Source: Takakia lepidozioides (taxonomy: Eukaryota > Plantae > Bryophyta). Taken from it: a stretch of 64,000 bases of DNA. Position numbers and translations under genes: made by a program. This document shows, one piece after another, positions 6,097 to 35,160 of the stretch. Each line of letters begins with the position of its first letter. The stretch's first letter is position 1. The notes beneath the pieces were generated by a model. The model saw only the letters and a list, made by a program, of their open reading frames with translations, was not told the origin of the DNA and did not search any database. The stretch lies in NCBI GenBank assembly GCA_030704615.1, contig CM060733.1, positions 74,152,001-74,216,000 of the forward strand, given 5' to 3'.

Positions 6097-6111
6097 TCTC
6101 TGATTCGCGGA

Positions 6112-8847: not shown

Positions 8848-8849
8848 CT

Positions 8850-8861
8850 TGGTATCAGAGC
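8850..8861 (+). promoter_or_regulatory. Primer-binding site (PBS) for initiator tRNA-Met
   Basis: TGGTATCAGAGC lies 2 bp after the LTR. The same PBS occurs on the minus strand at 24209-24220 and 29919-29930, with a one-base flank variant near 50745-50756. Confidence 0.92.
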
Positions 8862-11800
8862 TTAGAGTTCAGTACGCGATTGTCCTTGGGATTGGCCTCA
8901 TCATGGGGTCGGGCAAGCCAAAGCAAAAGCGGAACGGCCCAAAAGATGATGATCCTGGTGAGCCCGATGGGGGCGACGTGTCACCGAGGCGGCCGTTTGA
9001 GGAACCAATGCATGTTTCCGAAAACGAGGCCGCTCAAGAGCGGGAGGAGGAGGAATCCGGAGAGAATAGATGCCTCCCATGCCGGCAGCCTTTTGGGAAG
9101 GGTTGTTGGCGCATTTTTGGCGGGACGTTGAAAGACGTGTTGAAGGCGGCTAATACCACTTCAACTAAGGCAAAGTTTAAGGTGAAGCCGAAGGAACCCG
9201 ACACCTTCGAGGGCGTCCGAAATCGGAAGGCACTCAAAACTTGGCTCTTGGAGCTAGAGCAGTACTTCCGGGCGGCCAAGTTGAGTGATGAGGATCGGGT
9301 GGAAGTGGCTCCCACCTATTTGAGGGGCTATGCTCAACAATGGTGGCAAAAATGCCTTCACGACCGAGGTCCAAGCCCGGAAACCTTGAACTGGAGTGGG
9401 TTCAAGGAATTGATGAAGAGGCAATTTGTGCCCCTCAACGCGTCCTGGCTCGCCCGGGACAAGATGAGGAATTTGAAGCAAACAGATGACATTCGGGGAT
9501 ATGTCCAGGCTTTCAATGTGCTGTTGCTCGAAGTCGCGGACATGGCAGAACCATAAATAGTCTTCAACTTTGTGGCGGGACTAGCCCCATGGGCCAGGCG
9601 GAAGTTGGAGGAGAAGCCACCTAAGACTTTGAACGAGGCAATTGAGAGGGCTGAATGTTTCTCGGATGTCCCTAAGGGTGAAAGACAAGGCCGGACGGAG
9701 CTGAACCACAAGAAGACCCGGCGGGAAGGTGACTCCTTCCGACCGGAAAAGAAGTGGGATAGGCCACGCGGCGACAATGGCACGTGGAAATCGAAGGGAG
9801 GGCCTTCACAAGTCAAGGCGGCACCCGGTGCTTCGAAAGGAAAAGCGGGTGGAGTGGCTTATGGCGGATAGAAGGCGACCTTTGATGGAGTGTGTTTCAA
9901 TTGCGAGAAGCCCGGGCACATGGCCAAGAAGTGCACGAAGACCCGGCAATTGAACATGACTCGGGCGACCACAGAGCTGTCGGAAGATACCATCAGTCGC
10001 TTGGTGGAAGCGGTGGTCGCCAGGACTTGCAAGGTAGGCAACTATTCTTGTGAGTTGTATCAGGAAACTGGCGCCTTACGTAAATGGAGTCAGTTATTGT
10101 TCGTGGATGGGATAATATCCGGAACTAACGTGTCGTTGTTGGTGGACACAGGAGCGTTGCACTCCTTCATGACACCGGCAACAGCACAAAAGCTGGGACT
10201 CCCGACAAGTGACGTGAGGGCCTCTATTGAGGTGCGTTCTGCCAAAGGAGAACCGCAATTGGCGACAAGGTTGGCGTTTGATGTTCCTCTTCAACTGGGG
10301 AGTTGGGAGGGATGTGAGAACTTCACCATCTGCGAGATCGATGGAGTGGATCTCATTTTGGGGATGACCTTTTTGAGCAAATCCGGAGCGGTCATAGATG
10401 GCCGCAAGAGAGTAGTCACGCTGCCATGTGGGAATGGTGGCGAGGTCTTACGAGTGTCGGAAACGCCCAAACCCGTGGGAGGGGCGAATAAACCTCCTGT
10501 CAGCAAGGGAGTGGGCCGTGGAGGAGGCACAGGAGCCCCAGTTTTTGCTCTATATTAGAGAAGTGAAGGGAGAAGGCGATGGGGAGCCGAGCCCAGATTG
10601 GATCAAGGGGATTTTGGAGAAATACCAGGATGTGATGCCGGAGGATTTACCAAGCGGCTTGCCACCGCGAAGAGGAGTTGACCACAAGATTGAGGTGATA
10701 CCAGGATCAGAACCGCTTGCCAAGGCGCCCACAGGGAGTTGGTCGAGCTGAAGACTCAGCTCAAAGATCTAATGTCAAATGGGTACATCCGGCCGAGTAA
10801 GTCACCTTACGGAGCCCCGGTGCTATTCGCAGACAAGAAGGATGGGACGCTGCGGATGTGTGTCGATTACAGGGCTTTGAATAAGGTGACTATAAAAACC
10901 GGTACCCTTTGCCAAGGATCGACGACGACTTTTCGATCGGTTGGCAGGAGTGAAGTATTTCAGCCGGATCGATCTGCGCTCCGGCTATCATCAAATTTGA
11001 GTGGCGGAAGGAGATGAGGAGAAGACCGCGTGCAGGACAAGGTATGGTTCATATGAGTTCTTGGTGATGCCTTTTGGACTCACCAACGCTCCCGTGACCT
11101 TTAGCACGCTGATGAACAACCTTTTCTAGGAGTTGGATGACTTTGTGATTGTGTACATCGACGACATCTTGGTGTATTCGAAAACAAAGGAGGAGCACCT
11201 GGAGCACCTCAAAAGGGTGTTCCAGAAATTGCGGGAAGAGAAGCTGTATGCCAAAGCTTCAAAGTGCGAATTCGGGGTCACAAAAGTGGAGTTCCTGGGG
11301 CATGTGATTACACAGGATGGGATCAGAATTGATGACAGAAAAGTGAGGGCAATCTTGGACTGGGAGCCTCCGACTTTGGTCCCGGGAGTGCGATCCTTCC
11401 TAGGACTCACCTCCTATTACCGGAAGTATGTGAGAAATTTCGCCAAGATCGCGGGGCCGCTGTCAGACCTTCTGTATAAATCCAAAGTCTGGGCATGGAA
11501 CACCTTTTGTGGCCAAGCTTTTGCTGAATTGAAGCAGCGGATGGCGGAAGCTCCAGTCTTGAAAATCCTGGAGTTTGATCGTCCGTTCGAGATTCATACA
11601 GATGCGTCGGACTTCGCGATTGGGGGTGTACTGATGCAAGATGGACGTCCAGTGGCTTACGAAAGTATGAAACTGAATGAAGTGGAGCGACGGTGGCCGA
11701 CGCACGAGAAAGAGATGAAGGCGGTGGTGCACTGTTTTGAGCTTTGGCGCCACTATGTTGGTTCCAACCCAATGAAGGTGTTCACGGACAATGTCACGGT

Positions 11801-13830
11801 GAAGTATTTTGCCACGCAGCCCAAGTTGTCCCCAAAACAACTTAGGTGGCAAGATACTTTGGCGGTGTTCGACGTGGATATCCATTACAAACCGGGACGG
11901 GACAACGTGGTGGCCGATGCTTTAAGTAGAAAGCAGCAGCTCGTGTTGGTGTATAGGGGCGAGACGGCGCTCCAAAGGAAGATCCGGAAGGATGAGCTGG
12001 CGAAGTCCGTGATGCAGGACTTGAGGATGGGGGTTAATTCGCAGTTCCACTTGCAAAATGGACTGCTCCGGTATAAGCAAAAGCGTCTCTACGTGCCGAA
12101 GGGAGGATCAGAGATAGCCTCTTGAGAGAAATGCCATGATAGCCGCTTGCGGGCCACGGCGGAGCCAAGCGCACTGCGGCACTCTTGAAGAAAGAGTATT
12201 TTGGCCCAAACTGAGGGAGGAGGCAGAGGAGTATGTCAAGACATGCACCACATGCCAACAAAACCGGAGCGAGTACAAAAAGCAAGCGGGGCTGTTACAA
12301 CCCTTGCCGATTCCAGAGGGGACTTGGGAAAGCGTCTCGATGGATTTCATGACTGCTATGCCGCTGTCAAAAGGATTCGATGCAATCATGGTGGTGGTGG
12401 ATAGGTTCAGTAAAATGGGCCATTTCATCCCCACCAAGGAGACGACAACGGCGCAGGAAACAGGGCAACTTTACTTCGCCCACGTCTTAAAGCATCATGG
12501 AGTCCCAAAGGATATTGTCTCGGACCGCGATCCAAAGTTTACGAGTAAATTTTGGAGGGCACTTTGGAAGAAGATGGGGACGAGGCTGAAGATGAGCACC
12601 GCCTTCCGACCTACGACCGACGGCCAAACGGAAAGAGTGAATTCCATAGTGAAGCAGATCTTGCGGAATTACATGTCGGCAGACCAAACAAACTGGGTGG
12701 AACACTTAGACGCGGCACAGTTCTGTTATAATAACACAGAACACTCCGCAACGGGAGTTTCCCCTTTCATATTGGTCTATGGAAAAGCACCTCTGGTGCC
12801 GACAAGTTGGGCCGCCCAGGACGTTGAGGTACCGGCAGTAGCGGCGGTACTGGAAGAACGCGAGCGTTTGTTGAAGCTCGCAAAGTACAACATTGCCAAA
12901 GCTAGGAAACGGTATCAAAGGCAGGTGAATCGGAAGCGGAGGGAAGTGAAGTTTGAGGCAGGCACGGAGGTCTGGTTGAACATCAAGAATTTCCGACTAC
13001 CTCCGGAAGTGAGTCCAAAGTTCGTACCTCCGTATGCGGGACCCTTTCACATCCGGAAGGTTATGAATGAGGATGTGTATGAATTGGAGCTGCCGGCAAA
13101 CAGCAAGGTGCATCTTGTATTCCACGTCTCCCTTTTGAAGCCTTACTTCAAAGATGAAGCGCGTCCGAATCGGCATCAAGTGTTGCGTCCGCCACCTGTG
13201 CTGTTGGATCATGAAAATGAACCTGAGTACGAGGTGGAGGTAGTACTTAAGTCGAGGAGGTTCAAGAACCGAGAAACGGAGTATCTCATCAAATGGAAGG
13301 GCTATCATCATGTGGAGGCATCTTGGGTGCGTGCCTCAGAAATGGGAAACGCATCCGAGGCGGTTGCAGTTTTCGAAGGGCGACCTCAAAAGCGGAAGAA
13401 GCGTTGATGGGACATCAACCTTGGAGCGTGGGGGAGGAAATGCATGCTTAGCCCGGCTTAGCTAGCTTAGGAATCCGATTGCAAAAACTTGTATTGTACA
13501 AAAATTTGTTATAAAGGAAATGGGTTCCAAATGTTGTGCGACCTATTTTGTTTGGAATGGTGATGCATGGTGTGGTTGGCTAGTGTGTAGAATGCATGCT
13601 AGCTTACAAAAAGTAGGAGAGGTAAATTAGGTTAATTGTGTGTTTGCGCAGTGCCGAAATCGGGTGACTCCCATCCAAGGGGCAAGGAAACTTGTGTCTT
13701 CTTTAGGAGTTCACGTGCTAGTGCGCACCTGGCGCGTGCGCATACTATAATTGCGCTACCGAGGGGGTTGCTTTGTAGTGCGGGCTAACGCGGAAGCTAC
13801 GTGCTTCTGTTCACGTACTATAATCGTGAG

Positions 13831-13927
13831 TGTCGCGCACCTCACTTTGGTAAGCTCCCCCTCAAGTCATAGTTACTCGCTTTGATACGCGCGCCTGACT
13901 CCCAACCTGGCCGCCGGGCCAACTTGG
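13831..13927 (-). repeat. 97-bp chromovirus LTR end fragment fused to the gag of the DNMT element
   Basis: TGTCGCGCACCTCAC...CCAACTTGG; shares the TTTGAT/CCTGACT variants with the LTRs of copy 2. Confidence 0.88.
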
Positions 13928-13939
13928 TTTCATTCGCCA

Positions 13940-15289
13940 TTGTTGTGGGACGACATGGAGGAGATGTATGGAGCTACCAAGGGGCCTCGTAGGTACTCTG
14001 GAGCTGTGGGCACAATCGAGTTGGATGACTTTATCCAGGAGTTCGACAGCTGGTGTGATTTGCAGCAGATGCGCAATCCACAGCTATTCACCCCATTCAT
14101 GGCGTGGAAGGGACTGTTCCAGCATTTGGAAGGCCCGCCTATGGACGATTACCACGAGTTCAGGCGAGGACATGAAGCAGAAATTGAAGAGTGGAGGATG
14201 TATTGGTCACCTGACTACGTTTCCATTACTCGAGGAACAACACGACCAGTAGCGACATTAGTACCAATATCTCCCACTGCCAGCACTAGTAGTGGAACAA
14301 GTAGTGCCGGTACTTCTGCAGGTGGTACCAGTTCAAAAGGTGCTACTACTCCTCCTGCCATGACTACAACACATGTGCCTAGATTCAACCCGGTGGTGGA
14401 GTTCTTCTAGGAGTTGCGGAGGAACTACCAAGGTGTACGGACAGAGAAGCTGCGAAGTTTGCAAGACTTCCAGCGCAAACCCAATGAGAGCCTGCGAGAG
14501 GCATACACTCGTATGAGGCGCTTGATAAGTGTGACCCAAGGGGTAACTGAAGCTCAGGCAATCCAGTTCTGGTATGACATTTTGGACAAGGAGCTCAAGA
14601 GAAGGGTGCGGGATGCAACCCTGTTACAAGCAGCCCAACCCACATTAGCAGATGTGTTTCTGCTGGCTGAGCGGATTGAGCTCAACATGGTGGAGGAGCG
14701 AGTTGTCACCATTGGATTTGGCAAGGACATGCCTGCACGAGGCGCAACTGCCAGCCCACAGGCACAAGGTACTGCCCAGCAGCGTGGTCAGGGGGGCAAG
14801 GTTTCCCAACCCAAGTTCCATGGAGTTTACAGAGGACCTTAGGTGCAGAGGCCCGTGGCATCTTTTGCAGGCCAACAGCAACCAGGGGTGGTATGTTGGA
14901 CATGTGGAGGACCCCATGTCAAGAAAGATTGCCCAGAGAATGGCAGAAGGCCGGCACAAGCACAGCCTGCACAGTTGCAGTGTGGGCATTGTGACAAGTA
15001 TGGACATGGAGATGCCCAGTGTTATGACTTGCACCCTGAGTTGCGCCCAGGCCAGTTCCAAGGGAACAATGGTGGCCGGGGGCGAGGTGGACCAGCCCAG
15101 AGAGGACGAGGTGGTCGGGCACAAGGTGCAGGCCAAGGGCAAGCTCAACATGGCCAAGGACGCGGAGGTCAGGGTGTTGACCAAGGCATGGCCAATCGGC
15201 TTCAGCAGCTAGAGCAGAGGCTCGCTGCCATGGGCTATAGCTCAGGCGGTACCGGCTCCCAGGCGGGATGGTCCACCTCCTGCTCCTGA
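13940..15289 (+). pseudogene. Gag of the DNMT element, with two zinc knuckles
   Basis: Three ORFs in one frame separated by TAG at 14408 and 14840; FQRKPNESLREAYTRM; CWTCGGPHVKKDC; CGHCDKYGHGDAQC; RGG-rich tail. Confidence 0.85.
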
Positions 15290-15899
15290 GGGTAGAGATA
15301 TGGGAGGCATGGGCTTTATGTGCGGAGCAGCACTACCACTAGAGCAGGTGGAGTCTGCTGCAGCCGTGACTCGAGGAGCAGCACGAGTTCCTGAGCCACG
15401 AGGTGCAGAGGTGGAGTTTGATCCACAACGTGGGGAGGCAAGCCGTCAGGCGAGGCTTCCTCAGTCATTCACATTGGCGGAGACTGTGTCGACGCCATCC
15501 ATGGCACCTAGTTCTCGCCCGACTGTTACCGAGGCGAAGGTTACTATGCCATTGGGGAGAGCTACATGTGCAGCACTGACACCTGCTACCAAGGCTAGTG
15601 CAGCCGGTGTGTTATTGGGGGCAGCCACCTCTGTGTGTCAAGCCCCACTGTTCTTGGCAACCATGATTGCGACGCCGGGGGTAAGGGCAGCTGCAGTGTT
15701 CAGACTAGCAGCAACACTCTGTGAGAGTGGGGAGGTCACTTCATCTTCTGCGGAGTTAGTGGAAGGTGTAGTGGCAGAGGGATCCTCGGATTTGAGGGTC
15801 AAGACTGCCACGGCTGCGCCCTGGCAAGCTGCAACTGCCAGGTTGACGGAGCTGCCAGCTAGGCCAGCCTTTGAGCGCGCCATGGTGACACCTGGAGTT

Positions 15900-16270
15900 G
15901 TCTCGTTAGACAACCAGGATGGCATTTTCTCTTTGAGTGGACCGGCAGGCAAGAAGTACCGGCCACTGCGGGTCTTGTTGGACTCGAGAGCTCAGCCACT
16001 GATGTTGGGCAGGGCTGCTATTGTAGGTTTGGGCCTCATGGAGGCGGATATGGAGCCTTGTCCTTTCCAGATACAGACATCTCTGGGAGGATCAGAGCAG
16101 GCTCGGGGCATGACACGGCATCAGTGGCCATTAGACTGCAGCCGGATCACCCTACAGATGGCTCAGTGATGCGAGCCAAGGCCATTGTGACAAACGGGTC
16201 TCTTACGATGTCCTCGTTGGGGGGCAGTGTTATACCCATGGGCTTCACCCTGGACTTTTGGGAGGAGTCA
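15900..16270 (+). pseudogene. Aspartic protease of the DNMT element
   Basis: RVLLDSRAQPLMLG (a DSG-type motif with G replaced by R, Asp codon at 15981), followed after a frameshift by YDVLVGG. Confidence 0.75.
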
Positions 16271-16685
16271 GCATTCCTGGATGGCAGTCAGGGGATGGTC
16301 GTCGTGCACAGCTCCCTGTGACATTCATTGGGGGTATTGCGGCTGCCCAACGGGGCAAGATGCCAACACTAGCCGCCTTTACAGCTGCAGTTAGTTGGCC
16401 TGGAGAGTTGCTGGAAGGCAATGCCCATGCAGAGGATGTGCCACCTCCAGCAGAGCAGGATGACATGCATGGTATGGCGGAGTTGCCTGCCATAGTTGCT
16501 CACACTCCATTGTGGGGTACGAGCAAGGATTTGCAGCAGGTTGCTGATCGACGGGTGCAACAAGCCTGGGTAGAGGCTTTTGTACCGTCAGGAGAGGAGG
16601 AGAGTGCGGGTATTGCACCAGGACCACCTCAGTTGTCACCATTGGATACCACACCTATTGTGTGGCAGTATATGGATGAAGGCAC

Positions 16686-17620
16686 TTGTTTGGCGGGATC
16701 AGCACCGGATTGGTTGCTGTGCTAGAGGCAGGTATGCGGGTAAGGCGTTACCTGTATGTGGAGAGGGATGAGACTGCACGACGCGTCTCACTGTGCCATG
16801 TGGCTCAGTTGGTACAGCAGTACCCTGACTTGTTGCCTGTGTCTACAGTTCGTGGATACCAACAAGCCTTGCCAGCAGACATTTCCTTGTTGGGGGCGCA
16901 AGATTTGGAGCAGGTTGGCTCCATTGATCTGATAGTGGCAGGTTGGCCCTGCCAAGGGCATTCATCAGCCGGGCATGGCAATGGATTGCGAGACTCGATG
17001 ACGGGTCTGTTTTGGGAGATGGTGCGGGTTTTGCGCCACTTGCAGCTTCATCAAGCTGTATCTCCAGCATACATCTTGGAGAATGTGCCACTGATGGGTG
17101 ATTCTCAGGCCAGGGTGATGGCCAGTGTGCATCAAGTCCGGTCGTGGCTTGGGTCAGCAGTGCTGCTGGATGCAGCTGCAGTGGGATCACGGGCTCATCG
17201 TCCACGGCTTTGGTGGACTAACTTGATGCCACCCGCACTGCTCAAGCGTGCATTTGATGGGGTGCAGCGGCCAGCATACCTCACCGTGGATGGCATTTTG
17301 GACACAGGGATGCAGTCTCAACGTGTGAGACACGATGACCATTTGCCTTTGGCAGTGGTCAACAGGGTGGGTCAACCACGAGGAGCGTTACCTACACTGC
17401 TCAGCTTCCCAGGATCCCATGCTTTTCGGGATGGTGGACCTGGCCTCTTGTGGGATAGCCAGTTGCAACAGTTAGTGGAGCCTAATGCCGACGAGCGAGA
17501 GCGGGCTATGGGATTTTCCATTGGGACCACGGCGGTGCCTTCTCTTCTGAGGCATCACATCGTCAGGTGTTGGGGCAAGCAATGGATCTCAATTGCTTGA
17601 CCTGGATTATCAGCTTGGCT
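16686..17620 (+). pseudogene. C5 cytosine DNA methyltransferase domain, DNMT3-like motifs, inside the retrotransposon pol
   Basis: Motif I FGGISTG; motif II YLYVERD; motif IV DLIVAGWPCQGHS (Cys codon at 16950); motif VI YILENV (17079); motif VIII AHRPRLWWTNL; motif IX ERERAMGF; motif X VLGQAMD after a frameshift at ~17545. Confidence 0.93.
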
Positions 17621-18000
17621 ATGGCTGAGCAACATAGAGTGCGGAGTGCACTTCCCTTGACGGTCTCTCTGCCTACCGAGACGGTACAGGCAGTGAGTGG
17701 GGGCGAGCCGGTGAGGACCACGGGGTGTAGACATCCATGGCACACGTGGGAGGTGCTCGAGGTTCAGAGGGAGTTGGCAGCCAAGGCAGCTGTGATGGAT
17801 GAGGTTGGGGATTCTTCTCGGGATGAGGAGGTTCTCAATGATGAGATGATGGGGCAGGATGAGGCCTTGTCATTGACTGAGCAGGAAGGGAGTACTGCTC
17901 AAGAGGTTGCAGCATAGCAACCACGGACGCGTCCTCTACCTCTAAGCCCACTGGACTTAAGGTTGCAATTACGGAGGACAATTGGGAGCCTGACATTGGA

Positions 18001-21000
18001 TGTCGCGCACCTCACTCCGGTAAGCTCCCCTTCAAGTCCTAGTTACTCGCTTTGATGCGCGCGCCTGACTCCCAACCTGGCCCGCCCGGGCCAACTTGGA
18101 GCTTCGGCTGCTCACCGGGACATAACGGTCCCCCCGCTTCCCTAAACCCTCCACCTATTTGGGACTAGGAGAATTCCCTTTGGTAGATGGCAGTCCGGAA
18201 CAGCTCCCCACTCTTTGGTCGCTTTCCGGCTCGCTCGCTTACTCACTAGTTTTTGGTCACCAACGGGCTTGCACCGTTCTCGGGGTTACTACTCCCTATA
18301 TATACTTCTGTAGCTGTCCGCGGGGGTTTCACAACCAGCCATGCCATTTTATGGCGAACCACCACGAAAACCCTCGACTCCCGGTGGTGTCGCGGTGAGT
18401 CTTGGCCCACTCACCACGGCCCCTATGGACCGTGATGAGTCCCAAGACTCCCCACGACTCCCACCACGAGGTCTCCGCCCCCATGGTGAGTCCTATGCCA
18501 CCCCCACTAAGTCCCACTAAGCTACCACCACCCCTTGTGGAGCCACCCCCAGCCACCCCCACCGCAACCCGGTGTGCGGGGCTCCACCTAGTGAGCGCCT
18601 CCGCTTCCTGAGTGCCTTGGGCACTCAAGGGTGCTTCAGCCCCCCATACCTATCGCTATCGCTGCCCCCCCACCACAGGGGCAGCCCCTCATGTGTCCCG
18701 ACCCCCTGCCCTCAAGGCAAAGGGCCGCGACACACACCCCTACCAACAGGGAGTCGATGTCCTCATCGACTTGTCCATTTTGTAGAAACGAACATCCAAG
18801 TTGTGGCGTCCCACATCAAGGAGTTTGTTTCCGTACCATGGCGTCCCATGGCAAAGAACCAAACCCCACACTTGACTCTACTCTCCACTAGCTAGTTCGG
18901 CCGACTTCCTCCAAGTCCCGGCCAAGGGTGGAGCCTCTCCAGCTCCTCCCAGTGCACTCTTCTTGGCCTACTTCAAGGCCAAGGAACGATCCTCCCCGAG
19001 GATCGAATCGCCTTACTGCAACAACATTGCTTGCGATCGCTCATGATGCCGCTTTTGGCATCACCTTGAGCAAGGGTTCACCTGGAACCCTCTTTGACTA
19101 GGAAGATAACCTTGAACCAACCGTGCGCCCCAATCACTACAATTGGGTCCGCCTTGGAATGCTGGCCTGAGGTACGGGAACACGCCGAAGCCGCACTACG
19201 ACTTCGTCCCGAGGCTACACGATTATAGTACGTGAACGGAAGCACGTAGCTTCCGCGTTAGCCCGCACTACAAGGCAACCCCCTCGGTAGCGCAGTTATA
19301 GTACGCGCACGCGCCAGGTGCGCACTAGCACGTGAACTCCCAAAGAAGGCGCAAGTTTCCTTGCCCCTTGGATGGGAGTCACCGATTTCGGCACTGCGCA
19401 AACACACGATTAACCCAATTTACCTCTCCCACTTTTGTAAGCTAGCATGCATTCTACACACTAGCCAACCACACCATGCATCACCATTCCAAACACAATA
19501 GGACGCACAATATTTGGAACCCATTTCCTTTATAACAAATTTTGTACAATACAAGTTTTTGCAATCGGATTCCTGAGCTAGCTAAACCGGGCTAAGCATG
19601 CATTTCCTCCCCCACGCTCCAAGGTTGATGTCCCCATCAACGCTTCTTCCGCTTTTGAGGTCGCCCTTCGAAAGCTGCAACTGCCTCGGATGCGTTTCCC
19701 ATTTCTGAGGCACGCACCCAAGATGCCTCCACATGATGATAGCCCTTCCATTTGACGAGATACTCCGTTTCTCGGTTCTTGAACCTCCGACTTAAGTATT
19801 GCCTCCACCTCGTACTCAGGTTCATTTTCATGATCCAACAGCATAGGTGGCGGACGCAACACTTGATGCCGATTCGGACGTGCTTCATCTTTGAAGTAAG
19901 GCTTCAAAAGGGAGACATGGAATACTGGGTGCACCTTGCTGTTTGCCGGCAGCTCCAATTCATACACATCCTCATTCATAACCTCCGAATGCGAAAGGGC
20001 CCGCATACGGAGTACGAACTTCGGACTCACTTCCGGAGGTAGTCGAAAATTCTTGATGTTCAACCAGACCTCTGTGCCTGCCTCAAACTTCACTTCCCTC
20101 CGCTTCCGATTCGCCTGCCTTTCATACCGTTTCCTAGCTTTGGCAATGTTGTACTTTGCGAGCTTCAACAAACGCTCGCGTTCTTCCAGTACCGCCGCTA
20201 CTGCCGGTTCCTCAACGTCCTGGGCGGCCCAACTTGTCGGCACCAGAGGTGCTTTTCCATAGACCAACACAAAAGGGGAAACTCCCGTTGCGGAGTGTTC
20301 TGTGTTATTATAAGAACTCTGCCGCGTCTAAGTGTTCCATCCAGTCTGATTGGTCTGCCGACACGTAATTCCGCAAGAATTGCTTCACTACGGAATTCAC
20401 TCTTTCCGTTTGGCCGTCCGTCGTAGGTCGGAAGGCGGTGCTCATCTTCAGCCTCGTCCCCATCTTCTTCCAAAGTGCTCTCCAAATTTACTCGTAAACT
20501 TTGGATCGCGGTCCGAGACAATATCCTTCGGGACTCCATGATGCTTTAAGACGTGGGCGAAGTAAAGTCGCCCTGTCTCCTGCGCCGTTGCCGTCTCCTT
20601 GGTGGGGATGAAATGGCCATTTTACTGAACCTATCTACCACCACCATGATTGCATCGAATCCTTTTGACGGCATAGCAGTCATGAAATCCATCGAGACGC
20701 TTTCCCAAGTCCCCTCTGGAATCGGCAAGGGTTGTAACAGCCCCGCTTGCTTTTTGTACTCGCTCCGGTTTTGTTGGCATGTGGTGCATGTCTTGACATA
20801 CTCCTCTGCCTCCTCCCTCAGTTTGGGCCAGAAATACTCTTTCTTCAAGAGTGCCGCAGTGCGCTTGGCTCCACCGTGGCCCGCAAGCGGGCTATCATGG
20901 CATTCTCTCAAGAGACTATCCCTGATCCCTCCCTTTGGCACATAGAGACGTTTTTGCTTATACCGGAGCAGTCCGTTTTGCAAGTGGAACTGCGATTTAA

Positions 21001-24000
21001 CCCCCATTCTCAAGTCCTGCATCACGGACTTTGCCAGCTCATCCTTCCGGCAAGCCTTCCGGATCTTCCTTTGGAGCGCCGTCTCGCCCTTGTACACCAA
21101 CAAGAGCTGCTGCTTTCTACTTAAAGCATCGGCCACCACATTGTCCCGTCCCGGTTTGTACTGGATATCCACGTCGAACACTGCCAAAGTATCTTGCCAC
21201 CTAAGTTGTTTTGGGGACAACTTGGGCTGCGTGGCAAAATACTTCACCGTGACATTGTCCGTGAACACCTTCACTGGGTTGGAACCAACATAGTGGCGCC
21301 AGAGTTCAAGGCAATGCACCACCGCCTTCATCTCTTTTTCGTGCGTCGGCCACCGTCGCTCCACTTCATTCAGTTTCTTACTTACTTTCGTAAGCCACTG
21401 GACGTCCATCTTGCATAAGTACACCCCCAATCGCGAAGTCCGATGCATCTGTATGAATCTCAAACGGACGATCGAACTCCGGGATTTTCAAGACTGGAGC
21501 TTCCGTCATCCGCTGCTTCAATTCAGCAAAAGCTTGGCCACAAAATGTGTTCCATACCCAGACTTTGGATTTACACAGAAGGTCCGACAGCGGCCCCGCG
21601 ATCTTGGCGAAATTTCTCACATACTTCCGGTAATAGGAGGCGAGTCCTAGGAAGGATCGCACTCCCGGGACCGAAGTCGGAGGCTCCCAGTCCAAGATCG
21701 CCCTCACCTTTCTGTCATCCATTTTGATCCCATCCTGTGTAATCACATGCCCCAAGAACTCCACTTTTGTGACCCCGAATTCGCACTTTGAAGCTTTGGC
21801 ATACAGCTTCCCTTCTCGCAATTTTTGGAACACCCTTTTGAGGTGCTCCAGGTGCTCCTCCTTTGTTTTCGAGTACACCAAGATGTCGTCGATGTACACG
21901 ATCACAAGTCATCCAACCACTCCTGGAAAAGGCTGTTCATCAGCGTGCTAAATGTCGCTGGTGCATTGGTGAGCCCAAAAGGCATCACCAAGAACTCATA
22001 TGAACCATACCTTGTCCTGCACGCGGTCTTCTCCTCATCTCCTTCCGCCACCCGAATTTGGTGATAGCCGGAGCGCAAGTCGATCCGGCTGAAATACTTC
22101 GCTCCTGCCAACCGATCGAAGAGGTCGTCGATCCTTGGCAAAGGGTACCGGTTTTTGATAGTCACCTTATTCAGAGCCCTGTAATCGACACACATCCGCA
22201 GCGTCCCATCCTTCTTGTCTGCAAATAGCACCGGGGCTCCGTAAGGTGACTTACTCGGCCGGATGTACCCCTTTGACATTAGATCCTTGAGCTGAGTCTT
22301 CAGCTCGACCAACTCTCTGTGGCTCAACCGGTAGGCGGTTCCGTCCCGGTATCACCTCAATCTTGTGGTCAACTCCTCTTCGCGGTGGCAAGCCGCTTGG
22401 TAAATCCTCCGGCATCACATCCTGGTATTTCTCCAAAATCCCCTTGATCCAATCTGGGCTCGGCTCCCCATCGCCTTCTCCTTTCACTTCTCTAATGTAA
22501 AGCAAAAACTGGGGCTCGTGTGCCTCCTCCACGGCCCACTCCTTTGCTGACAGAAGGTTTATTCGCCCTCCCACGGATTTGGGCGTTTCCGACACTCGTA
22601 AAACCTCGCCACCATTCCCACATGGCAGCGTGACTACTCTCTTGCGGCCATCTATGACCGCTCCGGATTTGCTCAAAAAGGTCATCCCAAAATGAGATCC
22701 ACTCCATCGATCTCGCAGATAGTGAAGTTCTCACGTCCCTCCCACTCCCCAGTTGAAGAGGAACATCAAACGCCAACCTTGTCGCCAACTGAGGTTCTCC
22801 TTTGGCAGAGCGCACCTCAATAGAGGCCCCCACGTCACTTGTCGGGAGTCCCAACTTTCGCGCCGCCCGGCGTCATGAAGGAGTGCGACGCTCCTGTGTC
22901 CACCAACAACGACACGTTAGTTCCGGATATTATCCCATCCACGAACAATAACTGACTCCCTTTTCGCAGGGCGCCAGTTTCCTGATACAACTCACAAGAA
23001 TAGTTGCCTACCTTGCAAGTCCTGGCGACCACCGCTTCCACCAAGCGACTGATGGTATCTTCCGACAGCTCCGTGGTCGCCCGAGTCATGTTCAATTGCC
23101 GGGGCTTCGTGCACTTCTTGGCCATGTGCCCGGGCTCCCCGCAATTGAAACACACTCCATCAAAGGTCGCCTTCTGTCCGCCATAAGCCGCTCCACCCGC
23201 TTTTCCTTTCGAAGCACCGGGTGCCGCCTTGACGTGAAGGCCCTCCCTTCGATTTCCACGTGCCATTCGCCGCGTGGCCTATCCCACTTCTTTTCCGGTC
23301 GGAAGGAGTCACCTTCCCGCCGGGTCTTCTTGTGGTTCAGCTCCGTACGGCCTTGTCTTTCACCCCTAGGGACATCCGAGAAACATTCAGCCCTCTCAAT
23401 TGCCTCGTTCAAAGTCTTGGGTGGCTTCTCCTCCAACTTCCGCCTGGCCCATGGGGCCAGTCCCGCCACAAAGTTGAAGACCATTTCTGGTTCTGCCATG
23501 TCCGCGACTTCGAGCAACAGCACATTGAAAGCCTGGACATACCCCCGAATGTCATCTGTTTGCTTCAAATTCCTCATCTTGTCCCGGGCAAGCCAGGACG
23601 CGTTGAGGGGCACAAACTGTCTCTTCATCAATTCCTTGAACCCACTCCAGTTCAAGGTTTCCGGGCTTGGGCCTCGGTCGTGAAGGCGTTTCTGCCACCA
23701 TTGTTGAGCATAGCCCCTCAAATAGGTGGGAGCCACTTCCACCCGATCCTCGTCACTCAACTTGGCCGCCCGGAAGTACTGCTCTAGCTCCAGGAGCCAG
23801 GTGTTGAGTGCCTTCCGATTTCGAACGCCCTCGAAGGTGCCGGGTTCCTTAGGCTTCACCTTAAACTTTGCCTTAGTGGAAGTGGCATTAGCCGCCTTCA
23901 ACACGTCTTTCAACGTCCCGCCAAACTGCGCCAACAACCCTTCCCAAAAGGCTGCCGGCATGGGAGGCATCTCTTGGTTTGTCGGAGCTCTCAAGGATTC

Positions 24001-24939
24001 CTCGGGCTCCGACTCCTCGGATTCCTCCCGCTCTGAGCGGCCTCGTTTTCGGAAACATGCATCGCTTCCTCAAACGGCCGCCTCGGTGACACGTCGCCCC
24101 CATCGGGCTCACCGGGATCATCATCTTTTGGGCCGTTCCGCTTTCGCTTCGGCTTGCCCGACCCCATGATGAGGCCAATCCCAAGGACGATCGCGTACTG
24201 AACTCTAAGCTCTGATACCAAGTGTCGCGCACCTCACTTCGGTAAGCTCCCCTTCAAGTCATAGTTACTCGCTTTGATGCGCGCGCCTGACTCCCAACCT
24301 GGCCGCCGGGCCAACTTGGAGCTTCGGCTGCTCACCGGGACATAACGGTCCCCCTTCGCTTCCCTAAACCCTCCACCTATTTGGGACTAGGAGAATTCCC
24401 TTTGGTAGATGGCAGTCCGGAACAGCTCCCCACTCTTTGGTCGCTTCCGGCTCGCTCGCTTACTCACTAGTTTTTGGTCACCAACGGGCTTGCACCGTTC
24501 TCGGGGTTACTACTCCCTATATATACTTCTGTAGCTGTCCGCGGGGGTTTCACAACCAGCCATGCCATTTTATGGCGAACCACCACGAAAACCCTCGACT
24601 CCCGGTGGTGAGTCGCGGTGAGTCTTGGCCCACTCACCACGGCCCCTATGGACCGTGATGAGTCCCAAGACTCCCCACGACTCCCACCACGAGGTCTCCG
24701 CCCCCATGGTGAGTCCTATGCCACCCCACTAAGTCCCACTAAGCTACCACCACCCCTTGTGAGCCACCCCCACCGCAACCCGGTGTGCGGGGCTCCACCT
24801 AGTGAGCGCCTCCGCTTCCTTGAGTGCCTTGGGCACTCAAGGGTGCTCAGCCCCCCATACCTATCGCTGCCGCTGCCCCCCACAGGGGCAGCCCCTCATG
24901 TGTCCCGACCCCCTGCCCTCAAGGCAAAGGGCCGCGACA
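18001..24939 (-). mobile_element. Full-length Galadriel-like chromovirus copy 2, nested in the DNMT element
   Basis: LTRs at 24223-24939 and 18001-18732 share private variants; TSD TTGGA at 17996-18000 and 24940-24944; PBS 24209-24220; gag, protease, RT, RNase H, integrase and chromodomain all present but frameshifted. Confidence 0.97.
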
Positions 24940-24944
24940 TTGGA

Positions 24945-27845
24945 CCCATTGTCACCGGAGGAGAGAGACGACGTATACGGCGGTTCCTGAGGGCTTACAG
25001 GAATTGCTTTGCCTTCAGTTTGAAGGACTTGGGAGCACTGAAGGGTCAAGAAATCCGTATTGAGTTGGCCACTGACACGCCAATCTTTCGGAGACCCTAT
25101 AGATACAGTGACATGGAGAGGTCTTTGATTTAGATGAGGACTCAAGATCTCTGGGAGGCAGGTTTGGTGGAGCTCTCTGGTGGAGAGTATGCTTCAGCCA
25201 CAGTGATGCCAGCCAAGAAGGATGTCTATGGCAATTGGACGGAGAGACGTATGTGCGGTGATTACCGGCCTGTAAATCGTCAGACCAAGTCCGATAGGTA
25301 TGCCATGCCGACACCAGAGGAGATCTTTGATGCCATTGGGCATTCCAAGGTCCTTCGCACGTTGGATTTACGATCCGGATATCACCAGTTGCCGATCAAG
25401 GAGGCGGATAAGCAAAAGACGGCATTATGGGGGATCAATGAGCACGGGAAGGATTGCCTATACCAGTGGCGGTTCTTACCATTTGGGCTTAAAAACGCTC
25501 CCGCTGAGTTTCAAAGAGTCATGGACAGGATTCTAGCAGGGTGGAGTTTGCTCGGTGCTACATAGATGACATCATCATCTTTAGTGCTACGGTGGAGGAG
25601 CATGAGAGACACCTTCAGGGGGTATTTGAGCGCTTAAGGACGCACGGATTGAAGTTACATCCGGGCAAAGTGCAAGTTTTTTCCACAACCAATTGAGTAT
25701 CTGGGTCACATGATATCCTGGAGGATTGGGGGTACACAGACTAAGGTAGAGTCCATTGCACAGGTTCCACGCCCCACGGATGTGAGCCGAGTTTGAGCTT
25801 TCATGGGGTTAGCAAACTATTACAGACGGTTTGTTAAGGGATTTAGTGCCATTGCAAAGGCTCTAACCAAGCTGACCAAGGTGGACCAGGAGTGGCAGTG
25901 GGAAGATGAGCAAGAACAAGCTTTTCAAGAGCTCAAGGCGAGGGTTGACCTCGGCGCCCATCTTGAGACGACCTATCAGGGGGCGTCCTTTTCAGCTGCA
26001 TACAGATTGGAGCATGCTGGGGCTTGGAGCGGTGCTCACACAGGTGGATGATGAGGGAAGAGAGTTCGTAGTGGCTTATGCTAGCCGCTCGAACAATGCT
26101 GCAGAGTCTAAGTATAGCTCATATAGGGAGAATGCTTAGCTGCAGTGTGGGCCGTGGCACACTTCAGGTGCTATCTATACGGCAATCTCTTCACCCTTGT
26201 CACGGATCACCAACCACTCAAGTGGTTGATGGAGTCAGACAAGCTTACGGGAAGCTTGCACGGTGGGCACTCATCCTTCAAGAGTATGACTTTCAGGTGG
26301 TGCATCGACCGGGTTTGGTCAATCGCAATGCAGATGGGTTGAGTCGCAATCCATGCACGAGCCAACAGGATGACACTGGAGCTCTGTGGCATGGTGAGAC
26401 GGACGAGGAGATGGTGCCCGGATGGCATGCATCTGCATTTCTGTGTATCTTGGCAGCGGAAGGCCAGGTTGGACCTGCAACAGGGATGACTGTAGATCAA
26501 GTGTCTGAGGACCCTGAGGCCAGCAATGAGCAAGGTGGCGCCAAAGATATACATGAGGATTCAGTTGTGTTGGACTACCTCCGCACTGGAGACATTGCAG
26601 CCACTGTGACTACCAAGGAGAGGGATCGGATCCTACAACGAGCCAAGAGGTTCAAGTGGGAGGGGACACCTGCTCTGAGTGTGGGAGATGGTCGAGTGAG
26701 GATAGTGTGCCTCACCCAACACAGTGGGCACGGTTAGTGCGGCATGCCCACGAGGAGTTGGGGGCATTTTGGGGTGCGACGCACCAGAGCCTACTGCAGG
26801 GGCAATATTGGTGGCGTGGTATGCACACAGAGGTGCGACAATTTGTGGCTAGGTGCATGTGTGTGACAGGGTGCGTGCTTCATTCAACGCCCCTACTCCA
26901 CAATTGCACCCTCTTCCGATCATGGGATTGGGCTACAGGTGGAGTCTTGACTTCGCAGGGCCGTTGCCACTGACCATGCGTCAGAACAAATACGTGTTGG
27001 TGATGGTGGAGCACTTCTCCAAATGGATTGAGTTGGTTCCATTGCCTGATAAGGCTAGTGAGGGAGCTGCGTATGCATTCTTGGATTGTGTGCTTAGTCG
27101 ATTCGGTGCTCCAGCTGAGGTACTCACGGACCAAGGGAGAGAGTTCTTGGGGAGTTTCAGGCTTTGTGTGACAAGGCCTTGATAGACCACACACACCACT
27201 TCTCGGGATCATCCTGAGGCCGATGGCTTGGCAGAGAGAGTTGTTCAGACAGTAAAGAGGGGTTTGCGCAAGTATGGCTTGCAGGAGGGACACCTAGGAG
27301 ATTGGGACCTTCAGTTACCCTGGTTAGCCATGGGCTACAGGTTCAGCAAGCAAGCATCACTTGCCTCCTTCTCACCATACTTTCTTCTCTTTGGCCGAGA
27401 GCTGGATTTGCCTACATCCATTTGCAGAGAAGCTGCTACAGTTCTTAACCTTGACGATCCGGACGTGTGGGCACGTGCATGTGAGCAGCGTGCAGAGTTG
27501 TTCAAGAGAGTCATGCCCATGGCTTTCGAGAACCTTGCCATTGCACAACACCGTGATACGTTGAGGTATGCTACCATACGTGGTGGGGGCTATCGTCCTG
27601 GGGTTCGGAGATTCAACCCTGGTGACTATGTCTATCTGCAGCAGACTGCTCCTACGACCCTGGATGTGACTACAGGACGTGTTATTTTGAGGGTTCGAGA
27701 GGTCTTGCCCTCAGACGTCTTGGTCTTGGAGGGTCGGGATGGCATAACTTGGAAGGACCATGTGCGTAATTGTGCGCGCCATGTCACCTTCCGAATGTCG
27801 ATGGCAGGATTGACCCAAACCTGGCAGTGGTATCTGCAGGTTTGA
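24945..27845 (+). pseudogene. RT - RNase H - integrase of the DNMT element
   Basis: RMCGDYRPVN; LDLRSGYHQ; LPFGLKNAPAEFQ; YIDD at 25559; LHTDWS; NADGLSR; integrase WSLDFAGP / LTDQGREF / GLAERVV. Clearly a different family from the chromovirus. Confidence 0.93.
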
Positions 27846-27990
27846 GGTGCATGTTGTGTGGGTCTGCTAAAGAGCAGCCACCATGCTGGTGTGTGATCGA
27901 TGCTCTAGAGGTTGGCATATGGGATGCTTGACTCCACCTCTTGAGATGGTTCCGGATGGGGATTGGTTATGTCCACATTGCATTGGATAA
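27842..27990 (+). pseudogene. PHD finger (C4HC3) at the integrase C-terminus
   Basis: LRCMLCGSAK, a 1-bp frameshift, then AATMLVCDRCSRGWHMGCLTPPLEMVPDGDWLCPHCIG-stop. Absent from the ORF track. Confidence 0.9.
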
Positions 27991-28250
27991 TGGGAGTGGA
28001 TACAACCATGGAAGGCTAATAAGAAATGCAAGGTCAAGCTACTAGGAGACCTTGAACACACGAGATCTTGGCTCAAGTTCACAGATTGCAAGACGACGAC
28101 TAACGATGGGGCTACTCTTGTACCCGGCCTCTTGGTTGATAGAGTTTGAGCACGATAGGGACAATGATAGAGGACTTAGTACGGCTGTGGATATTACATC
28201 TTGTAGCTATCTGGAGTTAGAGGGACCTATCCACCAGCTAGGGGGGGCGA

Positions 28251-28663
28251 TGTGGCAGACTACTTTATTGTGCATATATGTGTGGTGTGGTTTGGACAGC
28301 GATGTAGTTGTGTAGCGATACGTATGCGCACGACAGCTGTCAAGTTAAATAAGCACAGTGTGAAACTAGCTAGAATAAAGCTAGTTATTTGTATTTTGGA
28401 TTTAGGTCAAGTGTTAAATCAGGTGTCAAGTTTAGTTTGACACCTGACCCATCTTATCTTCACGAGAGCGGCAGTCGCGCAGCTCATCTCTCTCGCTCCT
28501 GCATCGTTTAGGACTGAGTGTGCTTATGATGGGAGTATAGGTTGTTGTGGGGTGGAGTCCCCATAGCTTGGGGTGCCCCTGGCTCGACTTCTGTTTTAAG
28601 AGTGATAGCGATGGATTCATGTTGTTTCTGGTGTGAACAGTGTGTCTCTTAGCTTGTCAATCA
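28251..28663 (+). repeat. Putative 3' LTR of the DNMT element
   Basis: Starts TGTGGCAGAC directly after PPT AGGGGGGGCGA (28240-28250) and ends ...AATCA. Its first 86 bp are repeated at 28665-28750. The right boundary is inferred because the 5' LTR is missing. Confidence 0.7.
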
Positions 28664-28749
28664 TTGTGGCAGACTACTTTATTGTGCATATATGTGTGGT
28701 GTGGTTTGGACAGCGATGTAGTTGTGTAGCGATACGTATGCGCACGACA

Positions 28750-30658
28750 GACTGATGGTATCTTCCGACAGCTCTGTGGTTGCCCGAGTCATGTTCAATT
28801 GCCGGGGCTTCGTGCACTTCTTGGCCATGTACCCGGGCTCCCCGCAATTGAAACACACTCCATCAAAGGTCGCCTTCTGTCTGCCATAGGCCGCTCCACC
28901 CGCTTTTCCTTTTGAAGCACCGGGTGCCGCCTTGACTTGTGAAGGCCCTCCCTTCGATTTCCACGTGCCATTGTCGCCGCGTGGCCTATCCCACTTCTTT
29001 TCCGGTCGGAAGGCGTCACCTTCCCGCCGGGTCTTCTTGTGGTTCAGCTCCGTACGGCCTTGTCTTTCACCCCTAGGGACATCCGAGAAACATTCAGCCC
29101 TCTCAATTGCCTCGTTCAAAGTCTTAGGTGGCTTCTCCCTCCAACTTCCGCCTAGCCCATGGGGCCAGTCCCGCCACAAAGTTGAAGACCATTTCTGGTT
29201 CTGCCATGTCCGCGACTTCGAGCAACAGCACATTGAAAGCCTAGACATATCCCCGAATGTCATCTGTTTGCTTCAAATTCCTCATCTTGTCCCGGGCAAG
29301 CCAGGACGCGTTGAGGGGCACAAACTGCCTTTTCATCAATTCCTTGAACCCACTCCAATTCAAGGTTTCCGGGCTTGGACCTCGGTCGTGAAGGCGTTTC
29401 TGCCACCATTGTTGAGCATAGCCCCTCAAATAGGTGGGAGCCACTTCCACCCGGTCCTCGTCACTCAACTTGGCCGCCCGGAAGTACTGCTCTAGCTCCA
29501 CAAGCCAGGTGTTGAGTGCCTTCCGATTTCGGACGCCCTCGAAGGTGCCGGGTTCCTTAGGCTTCACCTTAAATTTTGCCTTAGTGGAAGTGGCATTAGC
29601 CGCCTTCAACACGTCTTTTCAACGTCCCGCCAAATTGCGCCAACAACCCTTCCCAAAAGGTTGCCGGCATGGGAGGCATCTGTTGGTCGGTCGGAGCTCT
29701 CAGGGATTCCTCGGGCTCCGACTCCTCAAATTCCTCCCGCTCTTGAGCAGCCTCGTTTTCGGAGACATGCATCGCTTCCTCAAACGGCCGCCTCGGTGAC
29801 ACGTCGCCCCCATTGGGCTCACCATGATCATCATCTTTTGGGCCGTTCCGCTTTCGCTTTGGCTTGCCCGACCCCATGATGAGGCCAATCCCAAGGACGA
29901 TCACGTACTGAACTCTAAGCTCTGATACCAAGTGTCGCGCACCTCACTTCGGTAAGCTCCCCTTCAGGTCATAGTTGCTAGCTTGATGCGCGCGCCTAAC
30001 TCCCAAACCTGGCCGCCGGACCAACTTGGAGCTTCGGCTGCTCATCGGGGGCATGACGGTCCCCCTTTGAACTCCCAAAGAACCCTCCACCGATTTGGAA
30101 CCAGCGGGAATTCCCTTTGGTAGTTGGCAGTCCGGAACAGCTCCCCACTCTTTGGTCGCTTTCCGGCTCGCTCGCTTACTCACTAGTTTTGGTCACCAAC
30201 GGGCTTGCACCGTTCTCCGGGTTACTACTCCCTATATATACTTCTGTAGCTGTCCGCGGGGGTTTCACAACCAGCCATGCCATTTTATGGCGAACCACCA
30301 TGAAAACCCTCGACTCCCGGTGATGAGTCGCGGTGAGTCTTGGCCCACTCACCACGGCCCCTATGGACCGTGATGAGTCCCAAGACTCCCCACGACTCCC
30401 ACCACGAGGTCTCCGCCCCCATGGTGAGTCCTATGCCACCCCACTAAGTCCCGCTAAGCTACCATCACCCCTTGTGGAGCCACCCCCACCGCAACCCGGT
30501 GTGCGCGGCTCCACCTAGTGAGCGCCTCCGCCTCCTTGAGTGCCTTGGGCACTCAAGGGTGCTTCAGCCCCCCATACCTATCGCTGCCGCTGCCCCCACC
30601 ACAGGGGCAGCCCCTCATGTGTCCCGACCCCTTGCCCTCAAGGCAAAGGGCCGCGACA
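28750..30658 (-). mobile_element. Chromovirus copy 3: 5' LTR (29933-30658), PBS and gag only
   Basis: Near-identical to copy 2 gag; stops abruptly at SEDTIS. Confidence 0.93.
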
Positions 30659-31459
30659 CTAAGTCTGTTCATGGCTACCGTGATGGGCAACTTTTTGATT
30701 TTTTTTTTTGATATTTTTTAAAGAAAGCCTCAGGCCCTTGAGGAGGGGGAAAATTTAACCCCCTTTCATTTATGGGCCATGAGACCTACAGGACGATCAA
30801 CGCCCAGACATACCGTCACGAACAATCCCACACACGGGGTAGGGCAGCGGGTTTGAACCCCGAACCACCAGGGCGACACACTGTGCACTTACCAGTTGAT
30901 GTGCTTTTTTTAAATCTTTTGCACTTTGATTTTTTTTTGTTTTTGTTTTTTTTAAATTCATTCTAGTGGTCAGAGTCTCCATTTTTCCAAAATAATACTC
31001 ATATATTATATATATAACCAGAAAAGCATGTGTCGACACGTGTAGTCACGTAGTGACTCATCCATATGATGATCTAGCAGGATGCATTAGAGTGAGAGTC
31101 ACGAAGTCATATGTCCGTCTAGCAATATGCACACGTCATTCCAGTGTAGGCATGACCGTGACTGGTAGTCATATCCGCCATGCCAATATTCGTGGTCAAA
31201 CATGTTTGACCTGTGTTGAGCAAAGTCCGGAGTCATGCAGTCTCATATGCGCCTTCCCCAGACCTGCATTATGACTTCAAAGGCATTTACGACTACAAAT
31301 GGCATTTATGCCACAAATCTGTCATGACTGCGTACCCATGGGAGTCATAAAAGCCGTAATCTGTTGTAGTGATACTTGCGCTATTCTTTGGCAATGGATA
31401 GCTGCAAATTGACCAATTGTTCTCCTTAGTTTGCATTCCCGTGTGAGACCAGTGCACTA

Positions 31460-33577: not shown

Positions 33578-35160
33578 TCACCAGTAGTCACCACAAGAAC
33601 CAATCCCATCTTCAAAGTGGTGGAAAGTAGTTAGCGTCCCATACAACAAATGCTCGACCAACAATCTTTGAGATGAATTTGGTGGAGGTGTGGCAGTTCC
33701 ATTCTTGATGAGTCGTGCTGATCAGCCCAAAACCAATGGCCAGCTTCTCACTGTGGTGGTAAAGAGAAAATTCCTTTCCTCCACATCATGCAATAAAAAG
33801 CGTGTGTCGGGCACATACCTCGCCTCCTTCATCTACCAAGACAATCTTCTCAGCTCAGCATGGATTTCCTTAATTCTGGGATGCAACTTGTCATTTGGCT
33901 CCTTTCTAACCCCTCTGCCCTTCATCATTCTTCTCACCTTTGCAGTATCATCCCACCTGCCAGCTGCAGCATAGATGTTTGATATAGCAACACATAAGTC
34001 GCGACATCCTGTTCATCCCACTTGAGGATAGATGTTGCCACACATTCAGCCATCTCCACATTGCCATGGATTCTGCAGGCACCAAGCAAGGCCTTCCACA
34101 CCACAACATCTGGATTGATTGGCATTTTATTAATCAGGTCCACTGCCTCACGTAGTTGTCCCGCACGTCCACAAGGTCCACCATGCAACCAAAGTGCTTT
34201 ACTAGCGGGGTGACACCATGATCTTGACTCAGGGAATCGAAGTAGCGTCTTCCTTCATTTAGTAGGCCACATGAAGAGAGAACACATATAAAGATGATAC
34301 TGTCCGACTTCAAGCCGTTCTTTTGCATTCCTTCAAATAGTTGCAGGACCTCCCTATGACAACCATGCTGGGTATATCCTGCGATCATCGCATTCCATGA
34401 CACCACATTTCGTTTAGCCATATTGTCAAATACTCCCTTTGCATCCTCAATCCACCCACATTTCGCATACATGTCCACCAGGGTAGTGTCCAGAATGACA
34501 TTTGGTAGAATTCCAGTTTTGATGATGTCACCATGCACCTCTTTGCCCTTTTCCAGGGTTGCCAGGCTTGCACAAGCATTGCAAACGCACACAAACGTGA
34601 TGTGGTCGGGCTTCACCCTTCCCCCGTCATTTGCAAGGTCTCCAAGGCCTCCATCTCACGCCCTTGCTGTGCATACCCTGCAAGCATCGCGTTCCACAAC
34701 ATACCCATGTGATCAAAGATCGTTGAGGCATTCTGTTGAACACTTGGTGAGCATCCATGATACTGCACTTAAGCAAGAGACAAACATTCGTATCTGAATA
34801 TGCTGAAATGCCTTCTTTCCTGTTGTGAGGAAAAAACAGGGTGAAATGTGTTGAAGAAGGTTCTGGGCTACCAGGCTTGCACACGCACTGCAAACGCACA
34901 CAAATGTTATGTGGTCGAGCTTCACCCCTTCCCCCGTCATTTGCTGGTCTGCAAAGCCTCCATCCCGCGCCCCTGCTGTGCACAGCCTACAGGCATCGCA
35001 TTCCACAACACCACATCTCGTTCAGCCATAGTGTTGACGCATCCTCAATGCTCCCACATTTGGCATACATGTCCATGAGCGTATTGTTCAGAATCACATC
35101 TGGTACACTTCCAGCTTTGGTGATGCAACCATGCACCTCTTTGCCCTTTTCCAGGGCTGT
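33578..35160 (-). pseudogene. PLS-class PPR-DYW RNA editing factor pseudogene
   Basis: TTLVDMYAKCG...NVVSWNAMIAGY; VVWKALLGACRIHGN; HHSEKLAIGFGLI; FHHFEDGIGSCGDYW-stop. Many frameshifts, deletions and inserts. Confidence 0.92.

Follow-up and report, generated by a model that had tools for sequence, protein, structure and literature searches.

The question raised by this locus is whether a land-plant Gypsy retrotransposon carries its own DNA cytosine methyltransferase (MTase), and how such an enzyme would be made and used. The window (the whole stretch of DNA analysed, 64,000 nucleotides) was examined by three-frame translation and Pfam, which gave the element order gag, protease (PR) region, C5-MTase, reverse transcriptase (RT), RNase H (RH), integrase (IN) and PHD finger. 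In unbroken frames, DNA_methylase (PF00145) was matched at 16680-17597 (E 1.6e-12) and Retrotrans_gag weakly at 14411-14839 (E 0.002, under the cut-off). Further Pfam matches in the window were RVT_1 (two, E 8.9e-14 and 1.5e-10), RT_RNaseH (E 6.6e-17), Integrase_H2C2 (3.3e-6), rve (3.3e-12) and PHD (27871-27987, E 5.8e-11). The location of the C5-MTase between protease and RT, claimed in an earlier note on this DNA, was confirmed by Pfam and by the alignment of relatives; the protease of this copy was identified through relatives only, which match Asp_protease_2, and its junction with the MTase is likewise supported by them. The features of the element were as follows (window coordinates):

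13955-15289, plus strand: zinc-knuckle-bearing gag region, interrupted by stops (60-80% identity to the gag of relatives)
15950-16320, plus strand: aspartic protease region, frameshifted, catalytic motif changed in this copy (alignment to relatives matching Asp_protease_2)
16683-17660, plus strand: DNMT3-type C5-MTase, its frame interrupted around motif I and motifs IX-X (PF00145; PDB matches)
17915-17923, plus strand: conserved ORF1 stop, UAG followed by CARYYA (27/27 related loci tested)
17996-18000, plus strand: left copy of the chromovirus target site duplication TTGGA (right copy at 24940-24944)
18001-24939, minus strand: nested chromovirus, foreign to the element (LTR pair; empty site in two runs)
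24945-26340, plus strand: RT and RNase H, broken (Pfam)
26730-27790, plus strand: integrase, broken, with HHCC finger and D,D35E core residues kept (Pfam; intact relative)
27838-27987, plus strand: PHD finger at the integrase C-terminus, frameshifted, without the methyl-lysine cage Trp (Pfam; relatives)
28240-28250, plus strand: polypurine tract right before B1 (kept in five aligned elements of four families)
28251-28335, plus strand: repeat B1 (TG...GACA), identical to B2
28332-28341, plus strand: palindromic B/A junction GACA-GC-TGTC, putative integrase cut site (equals the element ends of relatives)
28338-28664, plus strand: repeat A2, its partner A1 deleted here (by position, against L025 and L004)
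28665-28749, plus strand: repeat B2 and true 3' end of the element (inserted in chromovirus gag-protease, 28750-30659)

The copy is dead, as had been stated: it is interrupted by stops and frame breaks, carries a nested insertion and has lost its 5' end, including the repeat A1 and the leader. A chromovirus LTR fragment (13829-13927) adjoins it on that side. Some of the frame breaks may be assembly errors, because about half of the gaps between adjacent chromovirus copies are of the homopolymer type (22/40 and 22/48). The 3' end had been placed at 28663; it was found at 28749, and the 3' region is B-A-B, not a single LTR. A reading of 28251-28750 as tandem LTRs was dropped after comparison of the repeats with those of relatives (L025 and L004). 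Within A2, at 28440-28495, the loose ends of other copies resemble the reverse complement, possibly reflecting a small inversion in the window copy.

The nested chromovirus (minus strand) is bounded by LTRs at 18001-18732 and 24223-24939 (95.9% identity, 5 substitutions in 737 columns), with TTGGA on either flank. The empty site was recovered as one contig in each of the runs X6 and X8, from two studies, with the MTase side directly before the RT side; the loose ends of these contigs lie at window 24936 and 24939. The two sides do not form one continuous ORF, since the conserved stop at 17915-17917 lies between MTase and RT. In run X1, 42,774 contigs fell on the part from RT to the 3' end, mostly 90-99% alike, and the MTase-element family is therefore multicopy, with depth not to be equated with copy number. 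At least five pieces of the chromovirus family, 90-97% alike, were seen in the window (8013-13927, 18001-24939, 28750-30659 and 46832-54382). The chromovirus is both invader and target of the MTase element, and both were therefore active around the same time. The land-plant host that had been proposed fits a neighbouring DEAD-box helicase, whose best matches are from Calypogeia, Ceratodon and Sphagnum, so that the host is likely a bryophyte. The helicase is a single ORF (38571-40433) and is CpG-depleted.

The MTase was found to be family-wide and not a one-off capture. When longer proteins were searched, 82 of 7990 candidates proved to be relatives, with Marchantia (17), Sphagnum (2), Closterium (2) and Calypogeia (1) as named hosts; the gene ids of the 17 Marchantia entries are spread over five chromosomes. 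Riccia and Klebsormidium were added by a query with an intact ORF2, for which no vascular-plant name occurred in the best 120 of 2374 matches (weak evidence of absence). The MTase lies after gag/protease or before RT in 42 of the 82 relatives, between RNase H and integrase in 22 (18 of these with a PHD) and immediately before integrase in 13, five being uninformative; the mapping of architectures covered 66/80 loci. The window falls with liverwort (Marchantia, Calypogeia) and Sphagnum sequences in the MTase tree, at a support of 0.997, and in the RT tree, at 0.939. Trees of MTase and RT-RH from 55 sequences have 16 supported splits in common and seven conflicting pairs; the capture of the MTase is therefore old, with some shuffling of modules. 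Near-duplicate or short rows were excluded from the trees (24 loci in one round, 37 in another). The MTase tree was built without host DNMT3, and viral and weak metagenome matches were too short to root it; the MTases found in a viral collection were all distant (29-46% identity).

The Klebsormidium sequence P0128 places its MTase with the wider clade of the window (0.911) and its RT-RH with the second architecture (0.999), the outgroups being short and unstable; this suggests module exchange. Elements of the second architecture, with RT-RNase H-MTase-integrase-PHD as a single ORF, make up a separate clade in RT; they comprise most of P0041-P0076 and were seen at loci L040-L043, L048-L050, L052, L054, L056, L057 and L059. 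P0177, which is Gypsy-like, combines a PHD with a domain of the Dam family (PF05869).

How the enzyme would be made is indicated by a single in-frame stop, which occupies one shared position between MTase and RT in all 27 loci tested and splits Gag-PR-MTase from RT-RNase H-IN-PHD. These loci are the remainder of 31 that have both landmarks, after removal of L011 (with an insertion there) and of L028, L033 and L045 (duplicates of other loci); they are non-independent and represent about seven families. The stop is TAG in 20 and TAA in seven. It is followed by CAR in 25 of the 27 (CARYYA in full in six, CARYYC in 18), against a background of 67 in 13,065 stop triplets (0.5%). The window stop at 17915 reads UAG-CARYYA, and CARYYA is a known readthrough signal in plant viruses (PMC4132726). 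In L021 a single TAG divides an open frame of 1369 aa from one of 1047 aa; Klebsormidium P0128 and several other relatives have no stop between MTase and RT. Judged by this context, the ORF1 stop is likely leaky. Given the conserved stop, the MTase is likely produced in the amounts of Gag and for the most part lacking the PHD, and the idea of a reader plus writer like DNMT3 is weakened accordingly. A writer and a reader on one polyprotein had been claimed; the two are parted by the stop and would be joined only in a minor readthrough product.

The window MTase belongs to the DNMT3 family by its unpermuted motifs, catalytic Cys, Glu and Arg residues and DNMT3 fold. The motifs PCQ, ENV and RxR are all there, in agreement with the earlier description, and all 29 PDB sequence matches were DNMT3A/B/C. 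The catalytic Cys and Glu are invariant in 44/44 aligned MTases, and the RxR arginines almost so. The structure predicted for the intact MTase domain of L021 (pLDDT 94.8) was best matched by DNMT3A (E 3e-19, TM 0.71/0.83). The MTase is under purifying selection: between families, where dS could be estimated, dN/dS was 0.10-0.19, and the least saturated pair (L021-L020) gave 0.11 at a dS of 0.29. Inside a decayed family the ratio was 0.37-0.75, and RT and integrase behaved likewise.

Synonymous CpG in the MTase element was 0.41 of expected, with an excess of TpG and no loss of CWG, and in the neighbouring chromoviruses 0.65-0.72 of expected. CpG loss is non-diagnostic, since the host helicase is as depleted as the element (0.45) and 3/12 relatives show little or no depletion (0.88-1.00), although the catalytic motifs are intact in two of these three. 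As a trace of de novo methylation CpG depletion is thus only suggestive, and methylation of the element's own cDNA by the MTase is plausible. DIRS-Dnmt3 domains methylate CG de novo; with the KnitGypsy-Dnmt3 domain of Klebsormidium yeast DNA was not methylated, a result described by its authors as inconclusive (PMC5890265).

The PHD is carried on the integrase end, where chromoviruses have a chromodomain. The cage-Trp position is G, A or P in 75/75 relatives, and the finger resembles those of CHD4, PHF21A, KDM5 PHD1 and UHRF1, which are readers of unmodified H3.

The repeats of the family are permuted. The complete layout, A-coding-B-A-B, was found in L025; L010, L015, L019 and L051 end after a single B. 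The 5' end of the window copy is lost, and all data on ends and duplications come from one related family, in which 10/10 independent 5' ends start at the TGTCA of A, B never preceding it, and 4/4 loci having both ends show a 4-bp target duplication and TG...CA ends. Two complete direct terminal LTRs were absent (0/10 5' ends with B), and so was the mirror form A-B-A-coding-B (0/10), which is expected if both sites are cut equally. The B/A junction GACA-GY-TGTC is shared by four families, that of the window included, whose synonymous sites are near or at saturation; taken alone it is weak in the window, as 11/100 shuffles match, and GACA-NN-TGTC is also present by chance within the MTase gene of the family that provided the end data. 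A second-architecture element in L052 has the same GACAGCTGTC palindrome on its downstream side (L052:7580-7589), and its group may therefore have permuted ends as well.

Insertions end at the internal GACA/GY/TGTC; the priming sites point to other cDNA ends. The letters just 3' of A1 are complementary to A 164-179, about 26 nt past a TATA-like box; among nine loci the complementarity was 16 nt and exact in two, 9-10 nt in five and of no use in two. An RNA fold of this region is partly circular, its start having been picked from the complementarity. The arrangement resembles self-priming, which has been mentioned for Tf1/Tcn1 (PMC6317226). Together with the polypurine tract before B, a self-priming site after A would define the cDNA as BA-coding-BA. 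The A2/B2 seam is variable and retains primer-site letters in L022/L028, as expected of a ligation seam. The integrase of L021 is an intact DDE enzyme of the D,D35E type, and a scan of four L021 frames showed no tyrosine recombinase. These ends are most simply read as the product of internal cutting, either of circles or of linear cDNA. There are precedents in IS3/IS30 elements, which form circles with abutted ends, and in the foamy virus integrase, which cleaves two-LTR junctions.

That the element is a conserved bryophyte branch of a known kind of Gypsy is nearly certain; it probably belongs with KnitGypsy-Dnmt3. The working model, which we regard as probable by a modest measure, is that of a dead bryophyte Gypsy related to KnitGypsy-Dnmt3 with a leaky stop, an MTase that marks CG on its own cDNA and an integrase that cuts an internal palindrome. 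Readthrough would give a low level of Pol, and the MTase would be packaged at Gag level, in many copies. Priming from the self-priming site that follows A and from the purine tract that precedes B would yield an ordinary cDNA, BA-coding-BA, on which the MTase would methylate CG sites. Integrase would then use GACA/GY/TGTC within BA, so that A-coding-B would arise from a one-LTR circle or from linear cDNA cut twice, and from an end-joined two-LTR circle, cut singly, a copy-competent A-coding-B-A-B. The PHD would bind unmodified H3 tails and steer integration, not methylation. More tentatively, and with slightly less than even confidence, the family may be an ancient Gypsy of the green lineage, present in model bryophytes, that takes a leaky-stop, Gag-level DNMT3 into its particles and that integrates in a way not known for LTR elements, its DDE integrase opening circular cDNA at a palindrome pre-joined within the LTR.

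Other accounts of the repeats and of the enzyme were weighed against this model. Copying of the DIRS kind without internal cutting, in which the B-A block would be the template that restores the ends and integrase would act normally at A-start and B-end, is unlikely; it shares the layout of split-repeat DIRS elements (PMC5890265), is compatible with TG...CA ends and a 4-bp duplication, as found for any DDE product, and accounts for the missing A-B-A-coding-B forms, but a purine tract before B and a self-priming site after A point to ends at B-start and A-end, and the A2/B2 seam is variable and holds primer-site letters. From the window, a tangle of nested, gap-rich copies, it could be suspected that the layout arose when ordinary LTR elements inserted in tandem or recombined, or through misassembly; since it reappears, with perfect 4-bp duplications at the internal site, in loci that were assembled separately, is DIRS-like in Klebsormidium too (PMC5890265) and is replaced by the ordinary form in none of ten 5' ends, this explanation is largely refuted and keeps hardly any probability.

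As to the enzyme, a role other than cDNA methylation, be it nucleic-acid binding, RNA methylation or interference with host silencing, would agree with the inactivity of the Klebsormidium domain in yeast (PMC5890265), with expression at Gag level, which would fit a structural or decoy function, and with a CpG loss that is not universal. It is rendered rather improbable by the near-invariant RxR arginines and the Cys and Glu kept in 44/44 sequences, and by the related DIRS-Dnmt3 domains, which methylate CG de novo (PMC5890265). Guidance of the MTase to chromatin by the PHD, with methylation of the insertion site as by the ADD of DNMT3, was judged still less probable. The PHD does resemble readers of unmodified H3, and in the second architecture (22/82, 18 with PHD) both domains share an ORF; against this, the conserved stop parts them in the clade of the window, cleavage by the protease would likely separate them, and the PHD-bearing Gypsy-7a_cRei has been described without an MTase in the part of PMC9940879 consulted.

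The preferred model, CG marking of cDNA and internal cutting by a DDE integrase, was compared with known systems. The gag-PR-RT-RH-IN order, the DDE integrase, the TG...CA ends and the 4-6 bp duplication class (4/4 relatives with both ends) are those of Ty3/Gypsy; A-coding-B(-A-B) replaces the two full direct terminal LTRs. KnitGypsy-Dnmt3 of Klebsormidium nitens (PMC5890265) is likewise a Gypsy with a DNMT3-type MTase under purifying selection and a DIRS-like A-coding-B-A-B (complete in L025; B-A-B with A1 lost in the window). The order PR-MTase-RT-RH-IN was found in Klebsormidium KFL_009030040, whose link to the named family we infer. The bryophyte family differs in its host and in having the MTase in the Gag ORF, set apart from RT by the stop (27/27), and the PHD, 4-bp duplication, self-priming and integration route do not figure in the consulted part of the description of KnitGypsy-Dnmt3 (PMC5890265). 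SymbioDIRS-Dnmt3 and split-repeat DIRS share the DNMT3 domain and A-coding-B-A-B but have a tyrosine recombinase (PMC5890265), unlike the DDE integrase, TG...CA ends and 4-bp duplication found here. Chlamydomonas Gypsy-7a_cRei (PMC9940879) and REM1 are also Gypsy elements with a PHD, proposed to steer insertion; the former has near-ordinary LTRs and, in the text consulted, no described MTase. EpiLTRs (bioRxiv 10.64898/2026.05.21.726589) are LTR elements with a DNA methyltransferase and a chromatin reader, but their DNMT is sister to DNMT4 and is accompanied by a chromodomain and a Dam domain; the preprint itself sets them apart from streptophyte Gypsy-DNMT3. The host DNMT3 enzymes of non-flowering plants (PMC6453930) have the same unpermuted catalytic domain together with DUF3444, for which the element MTase gave no Pfam match. 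Troyka and Kuafuorterviruses were considered as split-LTR precedents and rejected, the consulted parts of their descriptions giving no match.

The novelty claimed at the outset was overstated, as the same domain order occurs in Klebsormidium and retrotransposon PHDs are already in print (PMC9940879, PMC6673714); what stands is that no land-plant report was found. Within its accessible text, the 2018 paper (PMC5890265) places Gypsy-Dnmt3 in Klebsormidium only and notes DIRS-like repeats with no mechanism, and later papers speak of 'streptophytes'. In a literature search, thin on subscription papers, neither a land-plant occurrence of the family nor its stop or its integration route was found described; PHD or methyltransferase is mentioned 0 times in the text of PMC6317226, consulted with regard to the REXdb lineages Phygy/Selgy, and PMC13468544 gave 0 matches for methyltransferase, PHD and Marchantia. 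The element is a bryophyte branch of a known kind, with two features, the stop and the permuted repeats, both missing from the earlier note, that likely alter how the family works.

What retrotransposon-encoded DNMTs do has been an open question since 2018, in part owing to known hosts that are difficult to handle; the many Marchantia copies would allow tests in a genetic model with methylation mutants. A leaky stop predicts the place and amount of enzyme made. Circles are normally dead ends for LTR elements, and permuted repeats would make them the productive intermediate. Such repeats would also account for the failure of two-LTR finders to detect the family and for the annotation of its ORF1 as a gene for a host-like methyltransferase.

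Elsewhere in the window a PPR gene fragment was seen at 34134-34655 (minus strand), and LINE RT/endonuclease-like fragments were recognized by eye at 40731-41267 and 56561-59368 (minus strand). A 96-bp tandem array (3430-3909) adjoins broken DNA-transposon-like ORFs (4100-6860, by eye), and a related piece lies at 45900-46490.
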